A stretch of DNA of 64,000 bases. Origin: a virus. Its lineage: Duplodnaviria; Heunggongvirae; Uroviricota; Caudoviricetes. The translations under genes and the position numbers were made by a program. Position 1 is the first letter of the stretch; each line of letters starts with the position of its first letter. Location: the IMG/VR virus record IMGVR_UViG_648028025_000005; one strand, 5' to 3'. The notes beneath the pieces are model-generated. The model had not been told where the DNA came from. It searched no databases and saw nothing but the letters and a program-made list of their open reading frames with translations. Of this stretch, positions 1,080-62,649 are shown piece after piece.

Positions 1080-1367
1080 TCAGATAGAGAAGGGAAATTG
1101 TCGCCGAGAATGTGTCACGCTTACAATCTCAATGCTTGAAGCAGCTACTCTGTACAGGATTATGTAGTTAGGGTGGGTCACGATCTCTCTCAATCCAGAA
1201 ACCCGTTCGCTTGGTGGATATAAGTACGGATGCTCAGATAGAGGTAATACCGATGTTTCAATGCGTATTTTTAGTCTACGTGCTGCCGGTGGGTTCTCCT
1301 TGGCGATGTAAGTTATGATCTGGCGCAAATCATCGCGAGCAGACGGTAGCCATAAAATGGGTAACAT
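1080..1367 (-). CDS. parE: type II toxin, ParE/RelE superfamily (ParE of a three-component paaR-paaA-parE module)
   Basis: 95 aa; ParE-like C-terminal pattern LREIVTHPNYIILYRV...HSRRQFP; start overlaps stop of upstream antitoxin ORF; operon position. Confidence 0.85.
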   Translation of the reverse strand: MLPILWLPSARDDLRQIITYIAKENPPAARRLKIRIETSVLPLSEHPYLYPPSERVSGLREIVTHPNYIILYRVAASSIEIVSVTHSRRQFPFSI

Positions 1368-1558
1368 TACTCGCTCTTGTTAGTTACAGCAATTTGAGCA
1401 ATAAGATTTTCCATTTCAGCCATTACCTCGTCATGTGGAATTGCGGGGCGAGTGTCTGCAAGGCTTGACGTTACTTTAGTGCGCAACCATTCGTTGTAAC
1501 TGTTTTCTTGTTCGGTAGTTTCGAATTCTGAAACTATCGGAGAAAGGGCTGTACCCAT
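1367..1558 (-). CDS. paaA: PaaA-family antitoxin (63 aa)
   Basis: 63-aa ORF immediately upstream of and overlapping parE; N-terminal SEFETTEQENSYNEWLR segment typical of PaaA-type antitoxins (recalled, not searched). Confidence 0.75.
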   Translation of the reverse strand: MGTALSPIVSEFETTEQENSYNEWLRTKVTSSLADTRPAIPHDEVMAEMENLIAQIAVTNKSE

Positions 1559-6193: not shown

Positions 6194-6607
6194 ATGGCAA
6201 AAGTATTTACACAGGAAGAGCGGGAAAAAATTAAAGGGCAGGTTGTTGAGCTAGTACGCCGGAGTGGGCGCGAGACGTTACGGCAACTGGAAGCCAAGAC
6301 AGGTGCGACAAGATATCTGATGAGCGTTCTTGCCAGAGAGCTGGTTGCCAGTGGCGATGTATACAACTCTGGTTACGGGTTATTCCCATCTGAACAGGCT
6401 CGTAAGGACTGGCAAAACGCCCGCAAAAAACTATCGAGGGCAAAACTGAAGAAACCGGTTGTGGTTGATCCTGACCTTATCTGGTCATTACCAGACGGAG
6501 AAATACGCCGCTATGACAGGCAATTGAACATAATTTGTAGTGAGTGCCGTAACAGTGAAGTGATGCAGCGAGTTTTGATATTTTACACAGGAGTAATGAT
6601 GGAATAG
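6194..6607 (+). CDS. hypothetical protein
   Basis: ATG 6194 (MAKVFTQEE) with GGAGG upstream; paralog in B at 54171-54563. Confidence 0.5.
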   Translation: MAKVFTQEEREKIKGQVVELVRRSGRETLRQLEAKTGATRYLMSVLARELVASGDVYNSGYGLFPSEQARKDWQNARKKLSRAKLKKPVVVDPDLIWSLPDGEIRRYDRQLNIICSECRNSEVMQRVLIFYTGVMME

Positions 6608-7197
6608 TGAAAATAACATGAAACCTTTGGATTCTGGTGTTTCAGTGGATGGGAAAAGAGCAGATACATAGAAAATGAATAGCAATAATTCACAGTCTGG
6701 ATGTTGTTTGTATGCTTATAAAATGATCCTAGTATGCATTGCCGGAGTTGAATCAGCTCCAATGAAGAAACTGAGAGGAGTATTTAGAAGATAGCTAAAT
6801 GGATGTAATTATTAGTATCTAAAAAATAGTATTTTTGAAATGGGTCTAAGAACACAACAATGTACAAATGAGAAGTTATCTTTTAATATGTTCAAAGACC
6901 CATTAGGATTGATATCAGTTATGTTAGCTAGATTGATAAAGTGATTACATATTTTCTGTTATATGCTGAAATGAATAATGCTATTCCAGAGTGCAGCAGA
7001 GAAAGTCTCCTGATGATTGAGCTCTGGAAATTGTACAATAGAAAAATTACTGTATTTTTCTGTCAAAATATTTCTCAAAACAGATTCCGCTTTGATGGCT
7101 TCAGGATATAAAGATGCGGAGTAATCAAGGCTAAGATTTCCGTTAAGCAAGCATATTGAACCGCCCCGGGTTCCTGGAGAGTGTTTTATCTGTGAAC

Positions 7198-8088
7198 TCA
7201 GGCTGCCAGATCATCGTTTCCGATGGAAGCATAATAAGCTTTTTCTGCTTCTGCCGGAGGAGTATGGCCCAGCCTTCCCAGCAATCGTCGATTGTTATAC
7301 CAGTCCACCCACGTTAGTGTGGCCAGTTCCACTTCTGCACGGTTTTTCCAGCTCTTACGGTGTATTACCTCCGCTTTGTAAAGACCATTGATGCTCTCAG
7401 CCATCGCGTTGTCATACGAGTCGCCTGTACTCCCTGTTGATGCCAGTAATCCGGCTTCTTTTAGTCGCTCCGTATAGGCCAGTGACACATACTGAGAGCC
7501 TTTATCGCTGTGATGGATGGTGCCAGACGGACGACGGGCCCACAACGCCTGCTCCAGCGCATCCAGCACGAATGTCGTTTCCATAGACGATGAGACCCGC
7601 CACCCCACGATGTATCCGGCAAACACATCAATGATAAACGCCACATAGACGAAGCCCTGCCATGTGCTGACGTAAGTAAAATCAGCCACCCACAGCTGGT
7701 CAGGTCGTTCTGCCACGAACTGACGGTTTACGCGGTCGCCTGCGGCAACGGCTTTCCGGCTGATGGTCGTACGGACCTTTTTACCCCGGAGAACACCGGC
7801 AAGTCCCATAACCGCCATGAGACGTGCCACTGTACATCTGGCCACCCTGATTCCTTCCCGTAACAACTGACGCCAGACTTTACGCACACCGTACACCTGA
7901 TGATTTTCATCGTATACGCGCTGTATCTCTCTCTTCAGCCAGTCGTCGTGCTGCGCACGGGCACTGCGTTTATCCGGATGATGTCGCTGTTGCTGACAAT
8001 GGTAATACGTTGACGGGGCAATATGCAGTTCGCTGCATACCGGTCCGACCCCGTACTGCTCACGCAGCTTATCCAGCAGTGGCATCAT
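7198..8088 (-). CDS. IS629 transposase OrfB (DDE catalytic domain)
   Basis: 296 aa, recognised IS3-family OrfB sequence ([16 protein letters not shown]...). Confidence 0.9.
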
Positions 8089-8411
8089 TTTTTCCAGAGG
8101 CGGTCGAACTCCGCCTTCGCAAAATAAGCGGAAGCCTGGCGAAGGATATCGTTACTGCGGCGCAGTTCACGATTTTCACGTTCCAGCTCTTTCAGACGCT
8201 GACGTTCAGCGCTGGTGAGCCCACCATCACCGCCCCCGGTATCCCGCTCATGCTGGCGAACCCAGACACGCAGGGTCTCCGGCGTACAGCCAATCTTTGG
8301 GGCAATGGAACAAATTGCCGCCCACTGTGAGTCATATTCATCCTGACTTTCCAGAACCATACGAATCGCCCGCTGACGGACTTCGGGGGAAAAACGAGTA
8401 TTTTTAGTCAT
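8085..8411 (-). CDS. IS629 transposase OrfA
   Basis: 108 aa HTH protein [19 protein letters not shown]...; overlaps orfB start at A-rich run (GGAAAAAATGATG). Confidence 0.9.
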
Positions 8412-9499
8412 CCTGTTTACCTCTTTCTCAGGGAGTTTAGTCTCCAGGATTTCCGGGGCGGTTCATATACTTTTAGTGTGCTTTGATTCTGATATATCAT
8501 CTTTAATTATCTTGATGATTCTTTCATTCTGCCATAGAAGTGATGGTGCAGATATATAATAATAGTTAAAGCATGAATTATTTTTTAAGCAATCAAGCAC
8601 AAAAATAGCACCTAGCGAGTGCCCCCATATACCGATTCTGGAACTGTTCGGAGCAATAGTACTAACCCATGGCATGATCTGAGTTAGTAATAATTCTCGG
8701 AAAGACTGGCTTCCTCCACCAGTAAAGTAGATCCATGCTGGTTTAGAGTTATCAACAATAGCATTTTCACCATCAGGAGTATAATCGTAAGCACGGCGAT
8801 GAATGCTAAGGTTATTCCAAGATTCATAACCAAGTGTAACTAACACTGGTGGATTGGGTAGTGCATCAATAACAGGCAGAATATCAGAAATGTAATTGTT
8901 GGCACTATTCCCATCAAGTATATAAAGAGTTGCATTATTTTTTTTAATGTTTTTTGGAGTAAAAATACATATTTTATATTTGGTGTCATGGTTAATTGAG
9001 TTAAATATGCGTGTTTGACAATGAATGTCCATATGTTTAGTCATGCGTTCTCCCCATGAGCATTAAAGGATGCTTAAGATATGCTATGTCACTGATAAAA
9101 AATTTGTTGTGTGTGTTTAGTTATTTTATCTACCTCCATTATGATTTAAGACTGATATATGTTATCAGCAAAGGTACATCGTTATTATTTTACCTGTCAA
9201 TACATTTGATATTGATTATCGTTTACATCGCTTGCTTAGGAAATTGAAGGCAGGTAACTATCATGTCAATGAACTAACCCACAGTCTAACGTACTTCTTT
9301 CCCCAATCACCAACAACCAAATTCCTGTTATCACCACTGGGATTTTGGCGCAACTTCATGGTGCAGAGGTAAATAGCATCAAGCAAAATCTCTTTTTCCG
9401 TTGTTGTCCTTATGGGACGTCTGTCTTTCTGACCGATTTCATATTGGCGAGGTAATGGGAAGTTAAGTAGAATAGCTGCGGGTGCTTGAGGCTATCTGC

Positions 9500-9648
9500 C
9501 TCGGGCATGAACACCAACGGCAGATAGAGAAAAGCCCCAGTTAACATTACGCGTCCTGCAAGACGCTTAACATTAATCTGAGGCTCAATCTATGAACGGC
9601 AAATCTAGGTTAGCCTCTTACGTGCCGAAAGGCAAGGAGAAGCAGGCT
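9500..9648. promoter_or_regulatory. hok leader region; expected location of mok start and antisense sok RNA
   Basis: by analogy with hok/sok loci only; in-frame upstream extension of hok ORF begins at 9592; no sok promoter mapped. Confidence 0.3.
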
Positions 9649-9804
9649 ATGAAGCAGCAAAAGGCGATGTTAATCGCCCTGATCGTCATCTGTTTAACCG
9701 TCATAGTGACGGCACTGGTAACGAGGAAAGACCTCTGCGAGGTACGAATCCGAACCGGCCAGACGGAGGTCGCTGTCTTCACAGCTTACGAACCTGAGGA
9801 GTAA
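9649..9804 (+). CDS. hok: Hok/Gef-family type I toxin (HokD/RelF-like, 51 aa)
   Basis: MKQQKAMLIALIVICLTVIVTALVTRKDLCEVRIRTGQTEVAVFTAYEPEE; single transmembrane helix; followed by terminator. Confidence 0.85.
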   Translation: MKQQKAMLIALIVICLTVIVTALVTRKDLCEVRIRTGQTEVAVFTAYEPEE

Positions 9805-9872
9805 GAGACCAGGCGGGGGAGAAATCCCTCGCCACCTCTGATGAATCAGGCATCCTCAACGCACCCGCACTT

Positions 9873-9899
9873 AACCCGCTTCGGCGGGTTTTGTTTTTT
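9873..9899 (+). terminator. rho-independent terminator after hok
   Basis: hairpin AACCCGC-TTCG-GCGGGTT followed by TTTGTTTTTT. Confidence 0.5.
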
Positions 9900-14379: not shown

Positions 14380-14455
14380 GGCCCTTTAGCTCAGTGGTGA
14401 GAGCGAGCGACTCATAATCGCCAGGTCGCTGGTTCAAATCCAGCAAGGGCCACCA
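14380..14455 (+). tRNA. tRNA with CAU anticodon (Ile2/Met type, ileZ-like)
   Basis: 76 nt cloverleaf read by eye; acceptor GGCCCTT/AAGGGCC; anticodon loop CT-CAT-AA; T arm GCTGG-TTCAAAT-CCAGC; CCA encoded. Confidence 0.85.
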
Positions 14456-14462
14456 TCACATA

Positions 14463-14539
14463 CCGCCATTAGCTCATCAGGAAAGAGCGCCAGCTTTCGA
14501 AGCTGGTTGCGCGGAGTTCGGGTCCCCGAAGGCGGTCCA
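14463..14539 (+). tRNA. tRNA-Arg(UCG)-like, degenerate copy
   Basis: anticodon loop TT-TCG-AA; relative to canonical B copy (62477-62553) it has an A-A acceptor mismatch, an A-C T-stem mismatch and altered T loop TTCGGGT. Confidence 0.55.
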
Positions 14540-14552
14540 TTATCTGTATCCT

Positions 14553-14629
14553 GCGTTGTTAGCTCAGCCGGACAGAGCAATTGCCTTCTAAGCAATCGGT
14601 CACTGGTTCGAATCCAGTACAACGCGCCA
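14553..14629 (+). tRNA. tRNA-Arg(UCU) (argO-like)
   Basis: 77 nt; acceptor GCGTTGT/ACAACGC; anticodon loop CT-TCT-AA; T arm ACTGG-TTCGAAT-CCAGT; CCA encoded. Confidence 0.85.
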
Positions 14630-15118: not shown

Positions 15119-16969
15119 ATGGCATTTAAACACTATGATGTTGTCAGGGCGGCGTCGCCGTCAGACCTTGCGGAAAAGCTGACACACAAACTGAAAGAGG
15201 GCTGGCAGCCATACGGCGGACCGGTTGCCATTACGCCGTACACACTGATGCAGGCGGTGGCTATTGAAGGAGATCCACAGGTCGGCCCTTCATCTGAGCC
15301 GGACTGGTTCTACGTGGTTGTGCTTGCCGGACAGTCCAACGGCATGGCCTACGGTGAAGGGCTTCCGTTACCGGATTCTTACGATGCTCCGGATCCGCGC
15401 ATTAAACAGCTGGCGCGCCGCAGCACGGTAACTCCGGGTGGAGAGAGTTGTACGTATAACGACATCATTCCGGCTGACCACTGCCTGCATGATGTGCAGG
15501 ATATGAGTACGCTGAATCATCCGAAGGCAGACCTGAGCAAAGGGCAGTACGGCTGTGTCGGCCAGGGCTTACATATTGCCAAAAAACTGCTTCCGTATAT
15601 CCCGAATAACGCGGGGATCCTGCTGGTACCATGCTGTCGTGGTGGTTCGGCATTTACCCAGGGCGCGGAGGGGACATTCAGTGCGGACACGGGGGCCAGC
15701 CAGGATTCGGCGCGCTGGGGTGTGGGTAAACCGTTATATCAGGACCTGATTGCGCGCACCAAAGCTGCATTACAGAAGAACCCGAAAAATGTGTTGCTGG
15801 CGGTGTGCTGGATGCAGGGAGAGTTTGACATGAGCGCCGCCACCCACGCACAGCAACCTGCGCTGTTTACAGCCATGCTGACACAGTTTCGTGCTGACCT
15901 CTCCGTGTTTAACGCGCAGTGCCATGGTGGCAGTGCTGCAGATGTGCCGTGGATTTGTGGTGACACGACGTATTACTGGAAAAATACATACGCTACCCAG
16001 TACGACACCGTGTACGGCGGGTATAAAAACAGGGAGAGTGAGGGCGTTTATTTTGTGCCCTTCATGACAGACGGTAACGGCGTCAATACCGCCACTAACG
16101 CGCCGGCAGAAGATCCGGATATTCCGGCATCAGGATATTACGGTGCGGCATCGAGAACGAATGGAAACCAGGTATCATCAAACCGCCCGACACATTTCAG
16201 TTCATGGGCGCGCAGGAGCATTATTCCGGATCGTATGGCAACCGCTATTCTGAACGCAGCCGGGCGCACCTCAGCCTTCATCAGTGGTAAGGCACCGGAA
16301 ATCAAACCCTCGCCCGGCGGCAACACGCCATCGGGTCCGTCTGCAGATACGTCCGTTCGCACAATCTCCCTGCTGCCGGCAGCCGGAGAGGCTGCTGCGC
16401 AGGGCTGGAGCATTAAGGATGGCGGAATTCAGTTGTCAGATGGTGTATTTAAGATCACCAAGCAGAGCAATAAAACCTGGTCCCTGACGCATCCGGTGGA
16501 TGACGCAATTACCCTGCTGACACAGGGCGGCAGACTGACCTGTAAGTTCCGCCTGTCAGGCGCACTGACCAACAATCAGTTCGGGCTGGGGATTTATCTG
16601 TATACGGATGCTCCCGTTCCTGATGGTGTGGCGATGACGGGTACCGGTAATCCGTTCCTGATGTCGTACTTCACTCAGACCACTGACGGCAGAGTGAATC
16701 TGATGCATCACAGGAAAGCCGGAAACACGAAGCTGGGGGAGTTCGGCGATTACGGTAACGACTGGCAGACGCTGGAGCTGGTGTTCACCGCCGGCAGTGC
16801 CACGGTTACTCCGAAACTGAATGGAGTGGCTGGCCCGGCATTCCAGGTTATAAAAGACAGTATGACACTGGGACTGAATGCGCTGACGCTGACGGATGTT
16901 ACAAAAAATGCAGCGTATGGCGTTGAGATAGAAAGTCTGGTGCTGGAGATAAATGCACCGGCAGCATAA
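15119..16969 (+). CDS. nanS: prophage 9-O-acetyl sialic acid esterase NanS-p (SGNH/SASA-type)
   Basis: 616 aa; N-terminal MAFKHYDVVRAASPSDLAEKL domain then GQSN nucleophile motif (VVLAGQSNGMAYGEG); sits after the Q-tRNA block as in Stx-type phages. Confidence 0.8.
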   Translation: MAFKHYDVVRAASPSDLAEKLTHKLKEGWQPYGGPVAITPYTLMQAVAIEGDPQVGPSSEPDWFYVVVLAGQSNGMAYGEGLPLPDSYDAPDPRIKQLARRSTVTPGGESCTYNDIIPADHCLHDVQDMSTLNHPKADLSKGQYGCVGQGLHIAKKLLPYIPNNAGILLVPCCRGGSAFTQGAEGTFSADTGASQDSARWGVGKPLYQDLIARTKAALQKNPKNVLLAVCWMQGEFDMSAATHAQQPALFTAMLTQFRADLSVFNAQCHGGSAADVPWICGDTTYYWKNTYATQYDTVYGGYKNRESEGVYFVPFMTDGNGVNTATNAPAEDPDIPASGYYGAASRTNGNQVSSNRPTHFSSWARRSIIPDRMATAILNAAGRTSAFISGKAPEIKPSPGGNTPSGPSADTSVRTISLLPAAGEAAAQGWSIKDGGIQLSDGVFKITKQSNKTWSLTHPVDDAITLLTQGGRLTCKFRLSGALTNNQFGLGIYLYTDAPVPDGVAMTGTGNPFLMSYFTQTTDGRVNLMHHRKAGNTKLGEFGDYGNDWQTLELVFTAGSATVTPKLNGVAGPAFQVIKDSMTLGLNALTLTDVTKNAAYGVEIESLVLEINAPAA

Positions 16970-51931: not shown

Positions 51932-52942
51932 ATGGCCGCATTACCATACATGCAACTGTACATAGCTGATTACCTGGCTGACACCATGCATTTGTCCGCA
52001 GAGGAGCACGGTGCGTATTTGTTGCTGATGTTCAATTACTGGCAAACAGGGAAACCAATACCTAAAAACAGGCTGGCAAAAATTTCCCGTCTGACTAACG
52101 AGCGATGGGCTGATGTGGAACCATCCTTGCGGGAGTTTTTTTGCGATAACAGCGATGAATGGGTGCATCTTCGGATTGAGGAAGATCTGGCATCAGTCAG
52201 GGAAAAATTGACCAAAAAATCAGCCGCCGGAAAAGCATCTGTTCAGGCCAGAAGAAGCAGAAAGGAAGCATATGTTCAAACAAAACAAGAGAGAGATTTA
52301 ACAGGTGTTCAAACAAATGTTGGTGTTGTGTTTGAACATGACGCAAACACAAAAGCAACTAATAAAGATACAGATCTAAAAGAATTAAACCCCACACATA
52401 ACGTGCGTGAACGCGAGAGTATTCCGACCAGTGAGTCGCATGGTGCGCCGTTGCAGACAGCCGAACCTGAATACCTGGACGGCCTGAGCGAACCGATCGG
52501 GAAATTTTCGATGACTACTGTCTGGCAGCCGTCGCCGGATTTTCGACAACGGGCAGCAGTGTGGGGTATGGCTCTGCCTGAGCCGGAATTTACACCTGCT
52601 GAGCTTGCCGCATTCCGGGATTACTGGATGGCGGAGGGGAAGGTTTTCACGCAGGTTCAGTGGGAGCAGAAATTTGCCCGCCACGTGCAGCACGTCAGGG
52701 CACAGGTAAAACCAGTCAGCAAGGGGGTAAGCCATGCAGCATCAGGTGGCACGGCATCACGGGCAGTTCAGGAAATCCGGGCAGCACGCGAACAGTGGGA
52801 ACGTGAAAACGGATTTATCAGCAACGGAAACGGCCTGGAAGCTGTGGGAGCTTATGGGGGAGGTGTATTCGAACCGCTGGACTCAGAAGAACGGGGCCGC
52901 ACCTTCGAAGCTCTGGATTGCCCAGATTGGTGCGATGACTGA
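51932..52942 (+). CDS. replication protein, DUF1376-like (O position); start uncertain
   Basis: N-terminal PYMQLYIADYLADTMHLSAEEHGAYLLLMFNYWQTG characteristic of DUF1376 phage replication proteins (recalled); track ORF begins 51878. Confidence 0.55.
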   Translation: MAALPYMQLYIADYLADTMHLSAEEHGAYLLLMFNYWQTGKPIPKNRLAKISRLTNERWADVEPSLREFFCDNSDEWVHLRIEEDLASVREKLTKKSAAGKASVQARRSRKEAYVQTKQERDLTGVQTNVGVVFEHDANTKATNKDTDLKELNPTHNVRERESIPTSESHGAPLQTAEPEYLDGLSEPIGKFSMTTVWQPSPDFRQRAAVWGMALPEPEFTPAELAAFRDYWMAEGKVFTQVQWEQKFARHVQHVRAQVKPVSKGVSHAASGGTASRAVQEIRAAREQWERENGFISNGNGLEAVGAYGGGVFEPLDSEERGRTFEALDCPDWCDD

Positions 52943-53396
52943 ACAGCAAATCCGTCTGGTCTGCCGTCAGTGCATGGACCGCTGCCGGGCGGGTGAAACG
53001 TGGCCCCCGGACCTGGCTGAGTTTGTTGCGCTGATTTCGGAGAGTGGGGCAAATCCATTTGGTCTTACGGTGGATGCCGTGATGGAAGAGTACCGGCGCT
53101 GGCGCAATGAATCCTGGCGATACGACGGGAGTGATAAATACCCGTGGCCACAGCCTGTGCTGTACCACATCTGCCTCGAAATGCGTACCAGAGGGATTGA
53201 GCGCCAGATGACGCAGGGTGAGTTAAAACTACTTGCAGAACGGCAACTGACGAAATGGGCAAAGCATGTTGGTAACGGGATGAGTGTTCCGCCAGTGCGA
53301 CGACAACTGGAAGGGGCGAAACACCCGCAAGGGCCAACGCCAATTGAGCGGCTGAAACAGGAATACGAACGCCGGAAGGCAGCTGGTTTTATTTGA
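52734..53396 (+). CDS. replication protein P-like (helicase loader family); start uncertain (52854 or 52935)
   Basis: weak lambda P-like pattern; ATG 52935 overlaps upstream stop (ATGACTGA) but homology seems to extend upstream, so 5' boundary unresolved. Confidence 0.5.
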   Translation: MQHQVARHHGQFRKSGQHANSGNVKTDLSATETAWKLWELMGEVYSNRWTQKNGAAPSKLWIAQIGAMTEQQIRLVCRQCMDRCRAGETWPPDLAEFVALISESGANPFGLTVDAVMEEYRRWRNESWRYDGSDKYPWPQPVLYHICLEMRTRGIERQMTQGELKLLAERQLTKWAKHVGNGMSVPPVRRQLEGAKHPQGPTPIERLKQEYERRKAAGFI

Positions 53397-53411
53397 ATCT
53401 GAGAAACGATT

Positions 53412-54155
53412 TTGTCGGAGGAAATTTTAATGGAAACCGTATTTGACGCACTGAAAGCACTGAAAAGAGCCTCTTCACAGGTAGTGGCGGCCCGCCTTGG
53501 AATCAGCCGTGAAGATGCGGTCAACGAACTGTGGAAACTGAAGCGCCGCGGTGAAGCGGATAACAAGGGGTCGATGTGGTGGCTGATTCAGGCTGGTGAA
53601 AGTGAACCGGTGTCACCGGTACCGAAAGTGACAGCGCAAATGCTGACTGAGGCGATTGAACAACATGGCCCACAAACGGCGGATGAGCTGGCACTGATGT
53701 TCGGGATTACCTCCCGCCGGGCGAATTCATCGCTGGCCATGGTAATCAGCAAAGGGCGTCTGATTCGCGTGAATCAGGGCGGTAAATTTCGTTACTGCAT
53801 ACCGGGCGCTGATTTACCGGCAGAGCCGGAAGCTGCATCCGTAGCGGAAACCGATGGTAAAGCCTTTCCTCAGCCAGCAGGTGTTGCGTTACCAGTTCGG
53901 GAAGCAGAAACACAGGAAGAAATAAAAACGGAAAGTGTGGCGGTCACAGTGCAGTCACAGCCGTCGTTCACCAGAAAACATCCGGATGGTCTGATTTTAC
54001 CATCGCTGCATGTGGCTAACCGCGAGCTGCGCCGGGCAAAAGGTCAGGTTCAGAAGTGGGAGCGAGTCTGCGCCGCGCTGCGGGAGCTGAACAAGCACCG
54101 GGATATTGTTCGACAGATTACTGATTCTTCCCGCCGTGTTGTATCGGAAAAGTGA
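53412..54155 (+). CDS. conserved lambdoid nin-region protein (hypothetical)
   Basis: 247 aa; paralog of 5408-6178. Confidence 0.55.
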
Positions 54156-54170
54156 TTGCCGGAGGCGCTT

Positions 54171-54563
54171 ATGGCAAAAGAATTTACACCAGAAGAGCGG
54201 GAAGAAGTGAAGGCGCGCATTGTGGAATTCGTGCGCCTGAGCGGACGAGAAACTTTTCGACAACTGGCAGATAAAACGGGTGTCAGTAAGACCGCTATTC
54301 GTCGTTTATCTGGTGCGCTTGCGGCCAGTGGTGATGTCTGGCTCTCTGGTTGCGGGGTATTTCCATCAGAGCAGGCGTATCGCGTATGGCGTAAGACACC
54401 GGAGAAGGCTGCTGACCCGACACTGATTCGAAAGTTACCTGACGGAGAAATACGTCGTTACAACAGACGGCAGAACATAATTTGTCGTGAGTGCCGCCAG
54501 AGCGAAGTTATGCAGCGTGTGCTGGCGTTCTATCGGGGAAACTTTCAGGAGGTGATGGAGTGA
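54171..54563 (+). CDS. hypothetical protein
   Basis: paralog of 6194-6607; ATG 54171. Confidence 0.5.
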   Translation: MAKEFTPEEREEVKARIVEFVRLSGRETFRQLADKTGVSKTAIRRLSGALAASGDVWLSGCGVFPSEQAYRVWRKTPEKAADPTLIRKLPDGEIRRYNRRQNIICRECRQSEVMQRVLAFYRGNFQEVME

Positions 54564-54856
54564 GGGTGAGAGTTTATATTGCCGGTCCAATGACGGGATA
54601 TGAAAATTTCAACCGTGAGGCGTTTCACAAGGCGGAAGAGGAACTGAAACGGGAAGGGCATACCGTCTTAACTCCGGCAGTACTTCCGGACGGGCTGACA
54701 CAGCCGCACTACATGGATATTTGCATGGCAATGATTCGTTGTGTGGATGCGATTTACATGCTGAATGGCTGGCAGCGGTCAGCGGGCGCTAAGGCAGAGC
54801 TGGCACTGGCGGAGAAACTGGGGCATGCGGTGATTTATCAGGAGGTGGCTCGATGA
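54560..54856 (+). CDS. DUF4406-like protein (nucleoside 2-deoxyribosyltransferase-like fold, putative)
   Basis: GTG 54560 after GGAGG; N-terminal VYIAGPMTG motif typical of this family (recalled). Confidence 0.5.
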   Translation: MRVRVYIAGPMTGYENFNREAFHKAEEELKREGHTVLTPAVLPDGLTQPHYMDICMAMIRCVDAIYMLNGWQRSAGAKAELALAEKLGHAVIYQEVAR

Positions 54857-55314
54857 GAGAGGTTAACTATGAGGCGCTTCGTGAGGCAGCACAAAACTAT
54901 CAGTCGACGCTGGCGTGGTATCAGGCTACCCCGGACAGCCCAAATGCTGAACGGGATTGTGATGCGGCTCTTGCTGCGTTTAAGCGTCATATCCGTCATC
55001 GGGAAGCGGATATTATCGCTGGTTTGCTGGATGGACTGGAAGAAGCAAAATCACAACTCAACGAGCAGCGTGAGTATTACGAAGGCGTTATCTCTGATGG
55101 GAGCAAGCGTATTGCTGAACTGGATGCGCGGGAAGTTCAATTACCGACTCGCTACGACCTTCGATATGGACACCCGATAAATGCAGATGAGCGACATGTC
55201 ATGATACCTAAAGAAAATGGCAGTTGGCTTTACCTGATTGACCTAGAACACGCATTACGCGTCGCTGGCATTCGCATCAAAGGAGAGGAGCATGGAAATA
55301 AAACCAGAGGATGA
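54853..55314 (+). CDS. Ead/Ea22-like protein
   Basis: 153 aa; N-terminal MREVNYEALREAAQ shared with 56293-56928. Confidence 0.5.
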   Translation: MREVNYEALREAAQNYQSTLAWYQATPDSPNAERDCDAALAAFKRHIRHREADIIAGLLDGLEEAKSQLNEQREYYEGVISDGSKRIAELDAREVQLPTRYDLRYGHPINADERHVMIPKENGSWLYLIDLEHALRVAGIRIKGEEHGNKTRG

Positions 55315-55648
55315 GTTAAGCAATATCGTTTTATTTCCGGTAAAAGAGGATGACCCTCGTAATCAGGTTAATTTTCTTTATGAGCCATCGGAAAGACCAT
55401 ATTGTCATCACGCCTCTGTTCGGGTTGACGAAAAAGAGCGCCAGGTCCGCTGTAAAATCTGCGGTGCGGTTGTGGAGCCGTTTGACTGGATGCTCTCTGT
55501 GGCGAAAAGAGAAACCAGACTGGCAGATGATGTAAGGCTATTGCGCCAGGAGGAACAGGAAAGGCGGAAAAATATAGAAAAGTTAATTCAGATTGAACGT
55601 AACGCGAAAGCGCGGATACGCAGGGCGACAAAATCCAGAACTGAATAA
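55292..55648 (+). CDS. hypothetical protein
   Basis: 118-aa ORF; Cys/His-containing; C-terminal basic coiled coil. Confidence 0.45.
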   Translation: MEIKPEDELSNIVLFPVKEDDPRNQVNFLYEPSERPYCHHASVRVDEKERQVRCKICGAVVEPFDWMLSVAKRETRLADDVRLLRQEEQERRKNIEKLIQIERNAKARIRRATKSRTE

Positions 55649-55698
55649 ATAAATTTAGCGCTGTAAATAAAATCTAATCCTGAACTGGAGGTATATTT

Positions 55699-55911
55699 AT
55701 GTTAAATACACAGAAAGCCATTAATGCGGAAAAATATAACGAGTGGGCAAGAAAATTCTCTGAGCAGATTTTTAAAATTACTGGCGATGAGAATGCGGCA
55801 AAAAATGAATTAGAACCGTGGACACCTGAAGGAAACGCACCAAATTATTGCTGGTGGGAGGTTGATCCGGTTGATGTTGCAAATGAAGCCATGAGTTACC
55901 ACAACGATTAA
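55699..55911 (+). CDS. hypothetical protein
   Basis: 70-aa ORF with RBS-like GGAGGT upstream. Confidence 0.4.
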   Translation: MLNTQKAINAEKYNEWARKFSEQIFKITGDENAAKNELEPWTPEGNAPNYCWWEVDPVDVANEAMSYHND

Positions 55912-55944
55912 TGTCAGGAGGCCGCCCGAAAGGGCGGTAGTTAA

Positions 55945-56127
55945 ATGCGAAAGTTTAAAATAATTATTGAAACGGGAATAGCCGGTGGAGATTTCGAGGA
56001 TGAATTCGAAGTGGATGATGATGCGACGCCTGATGAAATACATGACGAAGCAAAAGATATTTTCTTTAACTACTGCAATTATTCATATCACGAAATAAAA
56101 GACGAAGAGGAAGAACAAAATGGCTGA
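55945..56127 (+). CDS. small acidic hypothetical protein
   Basis: 60-aa ORF, highly acidic. Confidence 0.4.
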   Translation: MRKFKIIIETGIAGGDFEDEFEVDDDATPDEIHDEAKDIFFNYCNYSYHEIKDEEEEQNG

Positions 56128-56296
56128 TTTTGGTTCAACTAAATACAGCGTCAGTTTTGAAGAATGGCATGAACTGTTAATGGAATATGCAGAGTTACGT
56201 GGTGGCAGTGCTGCTGATGCTGAAGCATGGCGTGATGATTATGAAGCAGGAAAAAATCCGGTCGAAGCATATTGTGATGAGTGGGGCGATGAATGA
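56120..56296 (+). CDS. small hypothetical protein
   Basis: 58-aa ORF (MADFGSTKYSVSFEEWHELLMEYAELRGG...) overlapping neighbours by ATGA-type junctions; below track cutoff. Confidence 0.35.
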   Translation: MADFGSTKYSVSFEEWHELLMEYAELRGGSAADAEAWRDDYEAGKNPVEAYCDEWGDE

Positions 56297-56928
56297 GCGA
56301 GATTGACTATCAGGCGCTGCGTGAAGCAGCAGAGAAAGCAACTAAAGGATGCTACATCGTAGGGCATACATCGGGCAATCAGCATGGGAATATAACAGGA
56401 GTTTTTGTTTGTCAAAAATGGAAAGGAGAGCCCGGTGGCGTAATTGCAGAATGTCATGTTAACTGCCTGGTTGAAACAGATGTTCAGGCTTATGCAAACG
56501 CTGAATTTATTGCTGCTTTTAATCCAAATGTTGCGCTGGCACTACTGGATGAACGGGAAGCCCAAAACAAACGAATTGCAGAGCTGAAAGCTAATCTTGT
56601 GGCGCTGGCGGCGGAGAATGCGGTAATAAAGTCTGCAATTCCAGAACCACGGGATATTGAGGACGACAATGACAATATGGATGACGTATCTCTTGCTGAA
56701 GATTTCGGGTTCAATCATGCAATAGAACGGATGAGGAGACGGATTCCTGAAACTCCGGCCACCGACGCTTTCCTGGCTGAAGTACGGGCGGGGTTGTTTA
56801 ACGAGCTTTGCGCGGCGTTTGTCAGGTACGAAAAAGTTGCAGGACTGGATGATAGCGATACAGTAACGCTTAAGGAAGCGACAGAAGCATTGCTGGATTG
56901 TGCGGAACAGCTTATCGCGCCTGAATAA
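56293..56928 (+). CDS. Ead/Ea22-like protein
   Basis: 211 aa; MSEIDYQALREAAEKATKG N-terminus. Confidence 0.5.
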   Translation: MSEIDYQALREAAEKATKGCYIVGHTSGNQHGNITGVFVCQKWKGEPGGVIAECHVNCLVETDVQAYANAEFIAAFNPNVALALLDEREAQNKRIAELKANLVALAAENAVIKSAIPEPRDIEDDNDNMDDVSLAEDFGFNHAIERMRRRIPETPATDAFLAEVRAGLFNELCAAFVRYEKVAGLDDSDTVTLKEATEALLDCAEQLIAPE

Positions 56929-57015
56929 TTAAATTTAGTTAAAAATTTAATCCTTAACCGGAGGGATTTCTGCACCCTCAAAACATCAGGAGGCCGCCTG
57001 AAAGGGCGGTAAGAA

Positions 57016-57234
57016 ATGACTACATTATTCAGAAAAGAATATCCGAGAAAAAGTAGAGCGACAGAATTTTTGTTTCTCATTATATTTATCGTGTTGATGA
57101 TACCGATACCCCCGCTATTACTGGTCTGGTTTATCGTGAAAATAATTGAGCCAGTTATTGAATTGTATAACGACGTGGTGTGGGCGTCGTTCAGCACACT
57201 GCACAATAAAATTAATCCGTATAAGGAAAGCTGA
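57016..57234 (+). CDS. small membrane protein (hypothetical)
   Basis: 72 aa with one hydrophobic helix FLFLIIFIVLMIPIPPLLLVWFIV. Confidence 0.4.
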   Translation: MTTLFRKEYPRKSRATEFLFLIIFIVLMIPIPPLLLVWFIVKIIEPVIELYNDVVWASFSTLHNKINPYKES

Positions 57235-57235
57235 T

Positions 57236-57601
57236 ATGGCACTGACGAAAAAACAACGTGCAGAGCTGCGCATGAAGTTCGGCGGTCGCTGTGCTTATTG
57301 CGGCTGCGAACTTGGCGAAAAGTGGCATGCAGACCATGTAAAACCGGTCATTCGTTTTGATGGAAATATGCTTCACCAGGAACGTGACGATATATCCAAC
57401 ATGGTTCCGGCATGCCACCCATGCAATCTGCACAAGCATTGCAGTAGTCTGGAAGATTATCGGCGAATTATCAGTGATGGTCGTCGTGAATTCCTTGCGT
57501 CCGGGAAAGGCAAAGCGCTGGTTCGTATGGGATTGGTTGAAATGAAATCTGACCCAGTTGTGTTCTGGTTTGAAAAATATCAAGAAGGGGCTACGGCATG
57601 A
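57236..57601 (+). CDS. HNH endonuclease-domain protein
   Basis: CAYCGC...HADHV...[10 protein letters not shown] motif; ATG 57236. Confidence 0.65.
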
Positions 57602-57942
57602 CGACTTTTACCAGAGAGCAGTTAATAGCTCACGCAGAGGAGACTATTGAAACACAGAGACTGTGCATACCGGGCACAATCGACCATGACATCATCCGCA
57701 CATATAAGATGGATATTGCTGTTCTGGAAATCGCACTGGTATCGCTGGCAGCAGAGCCAGCCGGTAAATTGCATGAATACAAACCAGTGGGATATCAGCG
57801 TCTGGTCGATGAGTTAACCATGCTGGTAAAGCAGTTAACCTGGCAACTGAGGAAAGCGAAGCCAGACTGCAAATTACCGGATAAGGCGATGAGTTATCTG
57901 GAGCGGAACGGACTGATAAGCGTGGAGGATATTTTACGATGA
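57598..57942 (+). CDS. hypothetical protein
   Basis: 114-aa ORF overlapping HNH stop. Confidence 0.45.
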
Positions 57943-58146
57943 CCTGGCCTGAAGCATTCACAACGGTAGGAATTGCGATGGCGGTGGCGCTGGTGGTGTA
58001 TTCGATTTGCCGCTGGGGATAAATCGCCGAAAAAAGATCCCGACATAAACATGAGCCGGGATCTTTGATTTATATAGCCTACGAATCCGCCAGTAAGAGA
58101 GGGGGCGGACGGTTAATTCTAACACCGGAATGATGTGGGTAAAAGT

Positions 58147-58446
58147 TTATAAGAAATCGGTTTCATAACTTTGCCCACCATGATAGATACCGACAATAAA
58201 GACTTTTCTGCTATCAACGGCAAAAGCAATAATCGTTCTGTGGCGGAAATGAGTTACCCGCATCCCCTGGCGAATATCATCGCGTTTATTGCCCCGATGC
58301 GGGAATGTAGAAAACCCATCAAGATAATCAAGAAGCGCATTGGCATAATTGTCAGCAATGACGTTCCCTGCTTTCTCCGTTATATACCTGTGCAGGTTGA
58401 TTATTTGTTGTTCGGCCTCAGGAGTAATGATGACTTCATATGTCAT
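58147..58446 (-). CDS. parE: type II toxin ParE (RelE/ParE superfamily)
   Basis: 99 aa; ParE-like C-terminus RQGMRVTHFRHRTIIAFAVDSRKVFIVGIYHGGQ; downstream of ParD-like antitoxin. Confidence 0.8.
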   Translation of the reverse strand: MTYEVIITPEAEQQIINLHRYITEKAGNVIADNYANALLDYLDGFSTFPHRGNKRDDIRQGMRVTHFRHRTIIAFAVDSRKVFIVGIYHGGQSYETDFL

Positions 58447-58451
58447 GCAGA

Positions 58452-58709
58452 TTACTTCCCGGATCGAATCGCGGCGCGAACCTGTGAAATGGAGCGTCCG
58501 TTGTTTGGATTTTCGCGGATAGAATCAAGAGAGGGGGCGGCTGAATGCGTTAACCACGCTTCGATTGCTTTATCGCGCTCATTCAGTGCGCGAAGCCCTT
58601 CACGAATGACCTCGCTTTCTGAAGCATAGGCACCGGAAGCCACACGGGCGCGCACCATGTCAGCCATTTCGTTAGTTAATGTAATGCTGAATTGTTGGGT
58701 TGTACGCAT
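58452..58709 (-). CDS. parD: type II antitoxin ParD (ribbon-helix-helix)
   Basis: 85 aa from ATG 58709 (MRTTQQFSITLTNEMADMVRARVASGAYASESEVIREGLRAL). Confidence 0.75.
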   Translation of the reverse strand: MRTTQQFSITLTNEMADMVRARVASGAYASESEVIREGLRALNERDKAIEAWLTHSAAPSLDSIRENPNNGRSISQVRAAIRSGK

Positions 58710-58844
58710 GGTAAACCTCACGGAGTAGGATAGAACACCATTCGATGATAGCACGTTGCCTGTTGACGACAACAGAAATCAGAGACAATATTGCCGCACG
58801 CCAGCTTGAACAACTGGCACCTGCTGCGCCAGCAGAGAAAACCG

Positions 58845-59117
58845 ATGGCGCACAATACCAAACATCACAATTCTGATATCGCCCCTGCCAGCAGGCAAGG
58901 GCGGTGTTCTCACACATTCAAATATGACTGGTATCAGCACGATCCCTGCACTGAAGAACAGGCCGAATGGCTGATTCATAACTACCGCAGACGTGGGTAT
59001 GAGTTTAAGAAAGCCCTTAGCCTCGACTACCGTCACTGGATAATCTACGTCAGGCTCCTTTATTCCGAACGCCCGCCGCGTCCGTCCCGCACATTCCAGC
59101 AACGCATCTGGAGGTAA
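58845..59117 (+). CDS. small hypothetical protein upstream of DUF968 gene (Rem-position)
   Basis: paralog of 9972-10250. Confidence 0.5.
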   Translation: MAHNTKHHNSDIAPASRQGRCSHTFKYDWYQHDPCTEEQAEWLIHNYRRRGYEFKKALSLDYRHWIIYVRLLYSERPPRPSRTFQQRIWR

Positions 59118-59118
59118 C

Positions 59119-60165
59119 GTGCGGGTATTACTTCGACCTGTTCTGGTACCGGAACTCGGGCTGGTGATCGTTAAGCCGGGTCGTGAATCCATGCCGGTAT
59201 TCCACAATACCCGGGTACTGGTGGAGCCGGAACCGAAAAGCATGCGTAATCTGCCGTCCGGGGTTGTTCCTGCCGTTCGCCAGCCGCTAGTGGAAGACAA
59301 AACATTGCTGCCGTTTTTCAGTAACGCACGGGTGATTCGTGCTGCTGGTGGTGCTGGTGCATTGTCTGACTGGCTGTTGCGCCATATTAAATCCTGCCAG
59401 TGGCCACACGGCGATTATCATCACAGCGAAACCGTCATTCACCGTTATGGTACCGGCGCAATGGTGTTGTGCTGGCACTGCGACAACCAGCTGCGCGACC
59501 AGACATCCGAATCACTCGGGCAGCTTGCTCAACAAAATCTGACAGCCTGGATGATTGACGTCATACGTCACGCAATAAGTGGTGCACAGGAACGGGAATT
59601 ATCTCTGGCTGAATTATCCTGGTGGGCGGTCCGCAATCAGGTGGCGGACGCGCTACCGGAAGCGGTATTACGTCGTTCGCTGGGGTTGCGTGCGGAAAAA
59701 ATCCGCTCAATGTACCGTGAAAGCGACATCGTACCGGGAGAGCAGACCGCCACCAGCATACTGAAGCAGCGCACAAAAAATCTTGCGCCGCTGCCTCACG
59801 CTCACCAGCAAAAACCGCCACAGGAAAAGACGGTGGTCAGCATTGCCGTTGATCCTGAGTCTCCGGAATCTTTCATGAAACGACCTAAACGTCGCCGCTG
59901 GGTTAACGAGAAATACACGCACTGGGTGAAGACACAGCCGTGTGCGTGTTGTGGTAAGCCTGCTGACGATCCGCATCACCTGATTGGTCATGGTCAGGGG
60001 GGAATGGGGACAAAATCTCACGATATTTTCACGCTACCGCTGTGTCGGGAGCATCACAACGAGCTTCATGCGGATCCGCTGGCGTTCGAAGAAAAGCATG
60101 GTTCTCAGGTTGATTTAATTTTTCGTTTTCTTGATCACGCCTTTGCAACTGGCGTGCTTGGGTAA
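59119..60165 (+). CDS. DUF968-family protein (YdfU-like)
   Basis: 348 aa; paralog of 10252-11301. Confidence 0.8.
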   Translation: MRVLLRPVLVPELGLVIVKPGRESMPVFHNTRVLVEPEPKSMRNLPSGVVPAVRQPLVEDKTLLPFFSNARVIRAAGGAGALSDWLLRHIKSCQWPHGDYHHSETVIHRYGTGAMVLCWHCDNQLRDQTSESLGQLAQQNLTAWMIDVIRHAISGAQERELSLAELSWWAVRNQVADALPEAVLRRSLGLRAEKIRSMYRESDIVPGEQTATSILKQRTKNLAPLPHAHQQKPPQEKTVVSIAVDPESPESFMKRPKRRRWVNEKYTHWVKTQPCACCGKPADDPHHLIGHGQGGMGTKSHDIFTLPLCREHHNELHADPLAFEEKHGSQVDLIFRFLDHAFATGVLG

Positions 60166-60177
60166 AAGAGGTGACTG

Positions 60178-60537
60178 ATGCTCATAGATTTGGTTTTACC
60201 TTACCCGCCGACGGTGAACACTTACTGGCGACGCCGTGGCAGCACATATTTTATCTCGGAGGAGGGAAAGCGTTATCGCCGGGCTGTGGCGCTTATTGTT
60301 CGCCAGCAGCGGCTGAAATTAAGCCTGTCCGGAAGGCTGGCGATAAAGGTGATTGCAGAGCCACCGGATAAGCGCCGCCGTGACCTGGACAACATTCTGA
60401 AAGCACCGCTGGATGCGCTGACGCATGCGGAAGTGCTCATTGATGACGAGCAGTTTGATGAAATCAATATTGTGCGCGGTCAGCCAGTATCTGGTGGACG
60501 GCTGGGTGTGAAGATTTACAAAATTGAGAGTGAGTGA
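60178..60537 (+). CDS. rusA: Holliday junction resolvase RusA
   Basis: 119 aa; paralog of 11314-11685. Confidence 0.9.
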   Translation: MLIDLVLPYPPTVNTYWRRRGSTYFISEEGKRYRRAVALIVRQQRLKLSLSGRLAIKVIAEPPDKRRRDLDNILKAPLDALTHAEVLIDDEQFDEINIVRGQPVSGGRLGVKIYKIESE

Positions 60538-61076
60538 GCGTAAATATGATATATCCGGAAATTACAGGCAAAAGCGGCGAACATTTACGCCTGAACACGC
60601 TGGAAGCAGTCTGGATCCAGGGGAAATTACGGATGTGGGGGCGGTGGTCGTATATCGGTGGGGGTAAATCCGGAAATATGTTTAACCGGTTACTGGTTTC
60701 GAAAAAGCTGACGAAAACAGCAGTTAATGAGGTTTTACGCAGCATGAAGAAATCCGGGCTGGAAAAACCGGAACTTGAGGCATTTTTTCGGGATATGACC
60801 AGAGGGAAGCAGAAGAGCTGGTTGTCACATTGTACAGACACAGAGGCGTTGATTATTGATCGCGTTATCAGTGAGGTGCTTGGGGAATATCCCGGGCTAA
60901 TCAATATTCTCCGGCAAAGGTACGAAGGACGGGGAATGAGTAAGAGAAAAATGGCAGAATGTTTAAATCGTACTCACCCGGAATGGTGTTTCAGCACATG
61001 TGAGAAACGTATTGCAGGTTGGTTAGCCGTGGCTGAACACATGCTTTATGTACCTATGCACGATTCATTTCGATAA
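60534..61076 (+). CDS. putative late antiterminator Q (positional call; unrelated in sequence to Q of prophage A)
   Basis: 180-aa ORF overlapping rusA stop, in the Q position; no family motif confirmed. Confidence 0.45.
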   Translation: MSVNMIYPEITGKSGEHLRLNTLEAVWIQGKLRMWGRWSYIGGGKSGNMFNRLLVSKKLTKTAVNEVLRSMKKSGLEKPELEAFFRDMTRGKQKSWLSHCTDTEALIIDRVISEVLGEYPGLINILRQRYEGRGMSKRKMAECLNRTHPEWCFSTCEKRIAGWLAVAEHMLYVPMHDSFR

Positions 61077-61317
61077 AAAAAGCTTGCTTTTTTACGCAGA
61101 AACAGCTTGAATTCCTGTAAGCTTCGCAAAGCTGTATCGCGAGGCGAAATGCAAGTTTTTTCGCACAAGGAAGCCACCGGAAGGTGGTTTTTTTGTGTCC
61201 GTAATATACAGCAGCGCAATAAATTCGCTGGTGGTTATTAATACCGTTCTTTCAGCTTGCTGGCTTTTTCGACAAGAGTTATTGGTGTGTCACGTTAACC
61301 GAAAAAGGGAAAAAGAC

Positions 61318-61515
61318 ATGCTGAAACAGCAGGATATGACCGAAACCGCCAGAGTGGTGTTTAATGAATTAAGCGTTACCGAACCGGCGACAGTCGGGGA
61401 GGTTGCGCAGAATACTTACCTTTCACGCGAACGCTGCCAGTTAATACTGACCCAGCTTGTTATGGCGGGTCTGGCAGACTATCAGTGCGGTTGTTACAGA
61501 CGCCTTCAGTCCTGA
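61318..61515 (+). CDS. small putative DNA-binding protein upstream of AraC regulator
   Basis: paralog of 13303-13500. Confidence 0.5.
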   Translation: MLKQQDMTETARVVFNELSVTEPATVGEVAQNTYLSRERCQLILTQLVMAGLADYQCGCYRRLQS

Positions 61516-61649
61516 AGGCTTTTTATTTGTGGTGAATGGGCGGCTGGTGGGGGGGCGACACCTGTCAGTCCTTTGCTTATGTGTTGATGATAATTTACCT
61601 TTTGGGGCTATAATTGAGCTAACCAATTGCTAATGAAAGTAAAATTATA

Positions 61650-62363
61650 ATGGCTGTTGTCTGTTCAGTTATCATGGTTTGCTCCCCAATTAATATTTTT
61701 CTTGAAAAGGATACGTTGTCACTTAAGCCAGGCTCAGTCGTTCTGGCCACCAAATGCATCAGGGAGCTTTTCCTTATGCATTATGGCAAAGTTAAAATTG
61801 TCGATATAAGCGAATCCGTCGTAAGTCAATATCTGGAAAGTCAGCATAAGCTGACGAGGACTCGTCTGACTGACATTCCGCTTTACCTGTTGCTGGAACC
61901 CAACAATCCTGCGTTGGCTGCGGCTTTAATTACCAGCCAGGGATTTTCCGGAGAGGCCACGGATATGTTTCTTATGATGGCCTGCCTGTCTCTGTTTGAA
62001 ACAGATGAACGGATGTCATTGTTTTTAAGTGGATGTTTATCCAGCATAAGTGCCAAAGTCAGGGCGATAATTCAGACAGATATATCAGCAAGCTGGACGC
62101 TTGGTGCGATTGCTCTACAGTTGCATATGAGTGAGAGTTTGTTAAAGACAAAACTGAAAAATGAAGGGGGCATGTTCAGTCGCTTGTTGCTGGAAGAGCG
62201 GATGCGTGTTGCTGTAAATATGTTATGTTCCCGGCATGGATATGGACAGGCTATAGCAGAAAAATGCGGTTATTCAAGCAGGTCCTACTTTATTTCTGTA
62301 TTTCACCGCTATTATGGCTTCCCGCCAGACAGATATGTATCCAGGCAAGGGCTTGATTATTGA
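61650..62363 (+). CDS. AraC-family transcriptional regulator (prophage-borne)
   Basis: 237 aa; paralog of 13638-14351. Confidence 0.8.
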   Translation: MAVVCSVIMVCSPINIFLEKDTLSLKPGSVVLATKCIRELFLMHYGKVKIVDISESVVSQYLESQHKLTRTRLTDIPLYLLLEPNNPALAAALITSQGFSGEATDMFLMMACLSLFETDERMSLFLSGCLSSISAKVRAIIQTDISASWTLGAIALQLHMSESLLKTKLKNEGGMFSRLLLEERMRVAVNMLCSRHGYGQAIAEKCGYSSRSYFISVFHRYYGFPPDRYVSRQGLDY

Positions 62364-62391
62364 TTTTCATCTGATTATTATTTTTTGGCTC

Positions 62392-62467
62392 GGCCCTTTA
62401 GCTCAGTGGTGAGAGCGAGCGACTCATAATCGCCAGGTCGCTGGTTCAAATCCAGCAAGGGCCACCA
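62392..62467 (+). tRNA. tRNA with CAU anticodon (Ile2/Met type)
   Basis: identical in sequence to 14380-14455. Confidence 0.85.
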
Positions 62468-62476
62468 TATCACATA

Positions 62477-62553
62477 CCGCCATTAGCTCATCGGGACAGA
62501 GCGCCAGCCTTCGAAGCTGGCTGCGCGGGGTTCAAGTCCCCGATGGCGGTCCA
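62477..62553 (+). tRNA. tRNA-Arg(UCG), canonical copy
   Basis: acceptor CCGCCAT/ATGGCGG fully paired; anticodon loop CT-TCG-AA; T arm CGGGG-TTCAAGT-CCCCG. Confidence 0.8.
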
Positions 62554-62566
62554 TTATCAGCATCAT

Positions 62567-62643
62567 GCGTTGTTAGCTCAGTCGGACAGAGCAATTGCCT
62601 TCTAAGCAATCGGTCAGTGGTTCGACTCCACTACAACGCGCCA
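62567..62643 (+). tRNA. tRNA-Arg(UCU)
   Basis: anticodon loop CT-TCT-AA; T arm AGTGG-TTCGACT-CCACT. Confidence 0.85.
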
Positions 62644-62649
62644 CACTTA

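Follow-up and report, generated by a model that had tools for sequence, protein, structure and literature searches.

An alpha/beta hydrolase gene split by an IS629/IS1203-type element in a prophage of enterohemorrhagic Escherichia coli, and its probable place in the IroE esterase family

Which gene was interrupted by the insertion sequence (IS) that lies in an AT-rich part of the virus record IMGVR_UViG_648028025_000005, and what could the intact product of that gene do? In this work, we address these questions for a stretch of 64,000 nucleotides from this record, referred to below as the window, in which an IS3-family element of the IS629/IS1203 group separates two minus-strand pieces of a gene encoding an alpha/beta hydrolase. 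The inactivation of an accessory gene in a prophage of enterohemorrhagic Escherichia coli (EHEC) by such an element is a routine and well-documented event, and three RefSeq genomes already list this particular insertion as a split pseudogene. The mildly new point is the probable identity of the intact gene, which is widespread and has so far been recorded as 'alpha/beta hydrolase' or, in PHROGs, as a gene of 'unknown function'. A better name would be a leaderless and highly diverged esterase of the IroE family, with intact catalytic residues and under purifying selection.

The explanation that we favor, with a probability of roughly 0.93, is the following. A lambdoid prophage of an O26-like EHEC strain, not of the Shiga toxin (Stx) producing kind, carries a cargo gene that is AT-rich, runs in reverse orientation, and stands between the replication genes on one side and the hok/nin genes on the other; it encodes a leaderless IroE-family alpha/beta hydrolase of 257 amino acids. 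An active IS3-family element of the IS629/IS1203 type transposed into the cargo gene by the copy-out/paste-in route and duplicated codon 193, an ATA that reads TAT on the plus strand. A TGA contributed by the IS terminus now ends translation, and the resulting product of 193 amino acids retains Ser143 and has lost a strand, a helix, and His240.

The insertion and the gene that it interrupts

Direct reading of positions 6300-9600 places the left boundary of the element at 7157, where AT-rich DNA gives way to IS sequence (...AAGCATAT/TGAACCGCCCCGG..., the slash marking the boundary), while the right boundary reads ...CCGGGGCGGTTCA/TATACTTTT..., with 8465 as the last IS base. The element occupies 7157-8465 (1309 bp), and its termini are perfect inverted repeats (13 of 13 bases, 5'-TG...CA-3'), represented by TGAACCGCCCCGG at 7157-7169 and by the repeat at 8453-8465. 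Two copies of TAT flank it, one at 7154-7156 and the other at 8466-8468. In the O157:H7 strain PV15-279, the empty site reads ...AAGCATATACTTTT... and has one TAT only; the TAT pair therefore arose by duplication of a 3-bp target and is no chance match, just as the first-pass annotation of this DNA had proposed. Target duplications of 3-4 bp are described for IS629, of which 62% of the copies in O157 sit in prophages (PMC3271280).

The transposase genes of the element lie on the minus strand and are co-oriented with the hydrolase gene. The first of them, orfA (8411-8085, 108 amino acids), encodes an HTH_Tnp_1 domain (PF01527, E=2.4e-12), and the second, orfB (8088-7198, 296 amino acids), encodes HTH_21 (PF13276) together with the rve DDE integrase core (PF00665, E=9e-28). 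The ALIL pseudoknot, a frameshift-stimulating RNA of IS3-family elements, was found on the same strand at 8014-8130 (Rfam RF01497, 121.5 bits against a gathering score of 50, E=3e-32), and an identical copy of the element carries the note 'programmed frameshift' in the annotation by the Prokaryotic Genome Annotation Pipeline (PGAP). An OrfAB fusion is thus predicted to be expressed from orfA and orfB by a programmed -1 frameshift. In the IS3 family, OrfAB made by -1 frameshifting drives copy-out/paste-in transposition, which proceeds through a circular intermediate and leaves a 3-bp duplication. The TG...CA ends, the orfA/orfB pair with its -1 frameshift, ALIL, the 3-bp duplication, and the prophage target are all shared with the known IS629/IS1203 insertions in EHEC prophages.

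The name IS629, given to the element at first reading, holds at the level of the IS629/IS1203 group, to which its intact IS3-family features assign it. PGAP calls the transposase 'IS3-like element IS1203 family transposase', and IS1203 is treated as an isoform of IS629, whose sub-types are 4-5% apart (PMC3271280); with these two statements as proxies, the name appears acceptable as a group name. Many O26, O103, and other genomes contain copies of the element that are 100% identical to it over all of its 1309 bp. The sister genome RM8426 contains 11 places matching the element, as well as a second isoform that is only 95.8% identical. The reference IS629 is 1310 bp long, and the copy described here has 1309 bp. 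This length was considered as a mark of a defective element and rejected, as both open reading frames (ORFs) and both ends are intact and full-length identical copies are present in many genomes. Because of these copies, the 1309-bp form is regarded as a live and undamaged isoform.

The hydrolase ORF had been described as lying 'upstream' of the element; this is correct for the gene, which runs on the minus strand, so that its upstream part is the right-hand piece in the window. This 5' piece (8466-9044) comprises codons 1-193 and contains Asp44, Arg84, and the nucleophile Ser143 (codon 8618-8616, in GHSLG). The 3' piece (6959-7156, minus strand) extends from codon 193/194 to codon 257 and the stop, and it contains the catalytic His240 (codon 7015-7013). 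The 193-residue minus-strand ORF at 9044-8463 ends in a TGA (8465-8463) that is the reverse complement of the terminal TCA of the element, so its stop is indeed supplied by the IS end. When 7157-8468, comprising the IS and a single TAT, is deleted in silico, 9044-8469 and 7156-6959 together form, as anticipated from the first reading, a continuous minus-strand ORF of 257 amino acids with GIWGHSLGA (Ser143) and a C-terminal His240 in LNHQ. The insertion site lies exactly at codon 193; the right-hand TAT, read on the minus strand, is its ATA (Ile), and the junction falls on a codon boundary. Nothing beyond this boundary remains of the earlier description of the insertion as 'frame-preserving', as the insertion adds 1312 nt, a multiple of three plus one, and translation halts at the first IS codon.

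The element parts Ser143 in the 5' piece from His240 in the 3' piece, and for this reason the window copy is predicted to be inactive; the product of 193 amino acids would have no activity, and this copy of the gene would be a pseudogene. According to the AlphaFold2 model described below, the truncated product is also devoid of the last two strands and the last two helices of the fold (E192-197, H209-226, E229-234, and H240-256). Downstream of the element, an ORF of 63 amino acids is found at 7150-6959.

The excised sequence (6500-7156 joined to 8469-9400, 1589 bp) was used as a query against 5426 complete E. coli genomes. The locus is carried by 470 of them and is contiguous in 467; it matches the query at 99% identity or more in 457 genomes, and many of these, including O157:H7, O145:H28, and O103:H2 strains, have the uninterrupted allele at 100% identity over the whole 1589 bp. 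The uninterrupted allele that the first-pass annotation had suggested looking for is therefore present in related genomes, where the two halves form one gene. At the empty-site locus, RefSeq lists an intact 'alpha/beta hydrolase', WP_000160654.1, which is identical to the excised ORF of the window. Only three complete genomes, O26 RM8426, 2012C-4606, and 12689, match a 200-bp probe for the left junction over its whole length, and in the 14-17 kb surrounding the site they are 99.99% identical to the window. Over 44.8 kb, the window and RM8426 differ by 102 mismatches and 21 gaps, and the second IS of RM8426 is absent from the window. In all three genomes, PGAP reports two 'alpha/beta hydrolase' pseudogene pieces flanking an IS1203-family transposase, the 5' one missing its C-terminus and the 3' one its N-terminus.

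Two intact alleles that are 13% apart at the DNA level (the other one comes from a pig strain and is 87% identical) gave a dN/dS of 0.17 with a dS of 0.31, and because of this low ratio the intact gene is considered real and maintained by purifying selection. The insertion, in turn, is probably recent and selectively neutral or nearly so.

Other alterations were observed in this gene and beside it. In strain 12689, PGAP flags an additional frameshift in the 5' piece (8410-8989 in the locus of that strain) besides the IS. A variant of 209 amino acids (P0017), 83% identical, has N- and C-termini that look out of frame and is a further sign of decay in the family. In O157:H7 PV15-279 (6245-9108 in the locus of that strain), the hydrolase gene is intact and the neighboring DUF977 gene is split by the IS66-family element ISEc8, so this small region has received insertions of distinct IS elements in separate lineages.

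Identity of the interrupted protein

The reconstructed protein had been recognized as an alpha/beta hydrolase from its sequence. Homology to hydrolases was found, and matches to solved structures, both in sequence and in fold, place the protein very probably in the IroE family of siderophore esterases. In a sequence search of the PDB with phmmer, the best match was IroE (2gzr, E=5.1e-26, residues 8-253), and the further matches were all siderophore esterases, namely BES (E=9e-13), PfeE (1.5e-11), EstA/EstB, and an IroE-like hydrolase. Residues D90, R130, S189, and H287 of IroE align with D44, R84, S143, and H240 of the prophage protein, which are invariant in alignments of 13 and of 49 sequences. 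Roles in IroE are reported for D90 and R130, too. The Ser189/His287 dyad of IroE is given in PMC10515146, with reference to Larsen et al. 2006. An AlphaFold2 model of an intact allele, P0003, was built from the 49-sequence alignment and is confident (pLDDT 88.8, pTM 0.90). When it was compared with the PDB by Foldseek, 30 of the 30 best matches were IroE-family siderophore esterases, with IroE itself at E=5.8e-18 and a TM-score of 0.78-0.81. The family assignment is drawn from these sequence and fold searches because scans with Pfam and NCBIfam gave no match above cut-off.

IroE is the salmochelin/enterobactin esterase of E. coli CFT073 and Salmonella (PDB 2GZR/2GZS), and the prophage protein shares with it a full-length alignment, the fold, the GHSxG elbow, and the Asp/Arg/Ser/His set. 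In contrast to IroE, with which it has about 27-30% identity, the prophage protein lacks the N-terminal signal or anchor (about 40-50 amino acids), and its gene, with 34% GC, stands alone in a prophage, outside an iroBCDEN cluster. The same fold and catalytic serine motif are found in PfeE of P. aeruginosa, BES/BesA of Bacillus, the fungal EstA/EstB, and the IroE-like protein 3GFF of Shewanella, which differ from the prophage protein in their hosts and genomic contexts and show 17-22% identity to it in structural alignments.

Among the 1.84 billion representative proteins of a library, none was found that falls between the protein's own E. coli cluster and relatives at about 31-33% identity. 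These nearest outside relatives are of the IroE type and come from Pantoea, Kosakonia, Salmonella, Klebsiella, and Acinetobacter; they are 295-329 amino acids long and possess an N-terminal hydrophobic leader. The prophage protein begins about 40-50 residues later than these relatives, and stop codons are located just upstream of its ATG. Because the leader is missing and these stop codons are present, the intact protein is predicted to be cytoplasmic. BesA, which is leaderless and cytoplasmic too, resembles it in this respect. Taken together, the prophage protein appears to be a member of the IroE family and not an orthologue of IroE, having no signal or anchor and no linkage to an iro cluster.

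The gene is known solely from prophages inside bacterial genomes; in a tblastn search of the deposited phage collection, no close relative was found, and the best match was 29.5% identical. In the literature, nothing specific to the gene was found under WP_000160654, phrog_8493, or the combination of IroE, prophage, and O157. An anti-phage role was also considered and set aside, as PADLOC gave no defense-system match for the protein.

Hydrolysis of a siderophore ester is, at slightly better than even odds, the real activity of the intact protein. Such an enzyme would be expected to act in the cytoplasm on a catecholate trilactone siderophore of the enterobactin/salmochelin type. A more far-reaching proposal is that the intact allele (WP_000160654.1, phrog_8493), which occurs in 467 of the 5426 genomes, many of these being of EHEC serotypes, represents an unrecognized prophage-borne cytoplasmic siderophore esterase that serves as an iron-acquisition fitness moron; we regard this as tentative and, on balance, rather unlikely. 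If it were true, lysogens could free the iron of catecholate siderophores, whether foreign or of the enterobactin type, and the window copy would be a recent IS knock-out of an iron-acquisition moron. Should the siderophore activity be real, iron acquisition would join the cargo of EHEC lambdoid prophages, and the natural IS knock-outs would be ready-made controls.

Several points weigh against this assignment and what follows from it. The modeled structure is that of allele P0003, which is 90% identical to the window allele and is not that exact allele. The match of the reconstructed protein to the Pfam family Esterase (PF00756) is sub-threshold (17 bits against a cut-off of 22), an NCBIfam scan of the same protein gave no match, and the corresponding PHROGs family, phrog_8493, is the one listed under 'unknown function'. 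Identity to any characterized esterase is only 26-36%, too low to deduce the substrate. Unlike IroE and PfeE, which act in the periplasm, the protein has no leader, and it is not obvious what a cytoplasmic copy would add in an E. coli host already equipped with the cytoplasmic Fes. That the truncated product has lost its activity is, likewise, something that we infer.

Some of these points also speak for an enzyme with the IroE fold and a substrate other than a siderophore, i.e., another ester or amide, for example in a host or phage metabolite or in a cell-envelope component. The low identity to characterized members, the lack of a family-level call by Pfam and NCBIfam, and the presence of Fes in E. 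coli are all compatible with it, as is the isolation of this leaderless clade, which is limited to E. coli prophages. However, the solved structures that match by sequence or stand in the fold top 30 are all siderophore esterases, bacterial as well as fungal; the residues aligned with the four IroE positions are invariant; and a leaderless family member, located in the cytoplasm, exists in BesA/BES. A non-siderophore substrate is, in our judgment, a serious candidate that falls somewhat short of even odds. Two further alternatives concern the insertion itself. One of them holds that the hydrolase pieces never were one gene and that the IS marks either a rearrangement, by recombination between IS copies, or an assembly error joining unrelated DNA. 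IS629-type elements are multicopy, as the 11 places in RM8426 illustrate, and they can mediate rearrangements and confuse assemblers, but the 3-bp duplication is perfect, excision gives the sequence of 450+ uninterrupted alleles at 100% over 1589 bp, and the identical junction is present in three independently assembled complete genomes. With such evidence, this alternative has a negligible probability and may be considered already refuted. The other holds that the insertion is no plain knock-out and that the 193-residue protein, the 63-residue ORF, or IS-driven transcription provides a selected new or regulated function, which would fit the co-orientation of the IS with the gene and the junction on a codon boundary. 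This is very improbable, given that the insertion occurs in just 3 of the 470 locus-bearing genomes, that the truncated product is without the invariant His240, that the extra frameshift in the 5' piece of strain 12689 suggests decay, and that promoter-like sites are no commoner than in shuffled sequence. The simple disruption of an intact IroE-family gene by the element is thus the explanation that we retain.

The AT-rich island as prophage cargo

The island in which the hydrolase gene lies spans 6608-9300, the IS included, between the DUF977 gene, which ends at 6607, and a sok/hokD module, which starts at 9480. The low GC content of this region, mentioned in the first-pass annotation, is real: without the IS (6608-7156 and 8469-9300), the island has 33.5% GC, while its flanks have 52-53%. 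Its extent had been overestimated, however, as the AT-rich DNA amounts to about 1.4 kb instead of about 2.5 kb, and the IS in the middle has a normal GC content (54%). In the hydrolase coding sequence, GC reaches 34.5%, and it is 28% at third codon positions. The gene opposes the early rightward genes, which comprise the replication genes, DUF1627, and DUF977, followed by hokD, DUF968, rusA, and Q.

The window consists of two lambdoid prophages in tandem, at 1-44200 and 44200-64000. Homology between them stops at 6573 and resumes at 9922, and the second prophage has a different block of 4.2 kb in that slot, without a hydrolase gene. In prophages of O111 strains and in Qin-like prophages of B strains, DUF977 is directly followed by hok/rem and DUF968, again without the hydrolase. 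The earlier proposal that the island was acquired is supported by both its low GC and its absence from the syntenic slot of related prophages, and it would thus qualify as cargo, i.e., a moron. Lambdoid prophage morons, which are cargo with transcription of its own such as bor, lom, and the effector genes at prophage ends, are likewise discrete low-GC blocks of opposite orientation that occupy a variable slot and show presence/absence variation. Unlike in those morons, promoter-like matches are here at chance level, and the one putative terminator is a candidate hairpin.

This candidate is a long hairpin with a U-rich tract on the minus strand (6839-6905), about 55 nt past the stop codon of the hydrolase gene, and it may serve as the terminator of the cargo transcript. 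The region 6820-6960 on this strand has a minimum free energy of -26.7 kcal/mol (z=-3.3). A simple terminator scan missed the hairpin, whose loop is too long for it. A scan for promoters and terminators produced no more matches than shuffled sequence did and was not used as evidence.

Adjoining the island, the sok antisense RNA was identified at 9480-9654 (Rfam RF01794, 107 bits). Together with the hokD toxin ORF (9649-9804), it forms a type I toxin-antitoxin module in the variable slot. Just downstream of hokD, at 9813-9894, there is a weak match to the Salmonella prophage small RNA IsrK (RF01394, 27 bits against a gathering score of 50, E=0.006), which could be due to chance or could represent a diverged prophage small RNA.

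Other features of the window

A second site of possible IS activity is located in the integrase gene of the second prophage (window 44840-44860), where the minus-strand ORFs 45221-44829 and 44857-44201 are found. In RM8426, this site holds an IS3-family element, with the boundaries GGGTCTT/TGAACC...GGTTCA/CTTGCTCTC and a duplication of CTT. The window has no IS at this position; its sequence there, GGGTCTTTGCTCTC, corresponds to the expected empty site with one additional T (44847-44851) that frameshifts the integrase. A deletion between offset TTG microhomologies would produce this sequence, and the site is possibly a scar of IS excision. In EHEC, excision of IS629 is known to be promoted by the IS-excision enhancer. 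The extra T could also stem from a homopolymer sequencing error or from independent slippage. The +1 allele occurs in none of the 5426 complete E. coli genomes, where the best match is 99.5%. About 500 records match the site at 99% or more, and among the matches listed all have 200 nt, compared with 201 nt in the window.

Each of the two prophages contains a trio of tRNA genes, Met (CAT; Ile according to PGAP), Arg, and Arg, downstream of Q, at 14380-14629 and 62392-62643. In the first prophage, there are no stx genes between these tRNAs and a nanS-like SASA esterase gene (15119-16969), so this prophage is Stx-phage-like without the toxin genes. At 42645-43397 (minus strand), it encodes a proline-rich repeat protein of 250 amino acids with four near-identical repeats of 47 amino acids, which is annotated as 'EspF repeat-containing protein' and is TccP/EspFu-like. 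Together with an EspV fragment at about 43720-43910, at the end of the first prophage, it constitutes type III effector cargo. Next to the prophage repressor region, a type II toxin-antitoxin pair, RelE/ParE-RelB, is encoded at 1080-1558 (minus strand), and the annotation of the near-identical RM8426 locus places a YdaT-family gene at 2352-2777.

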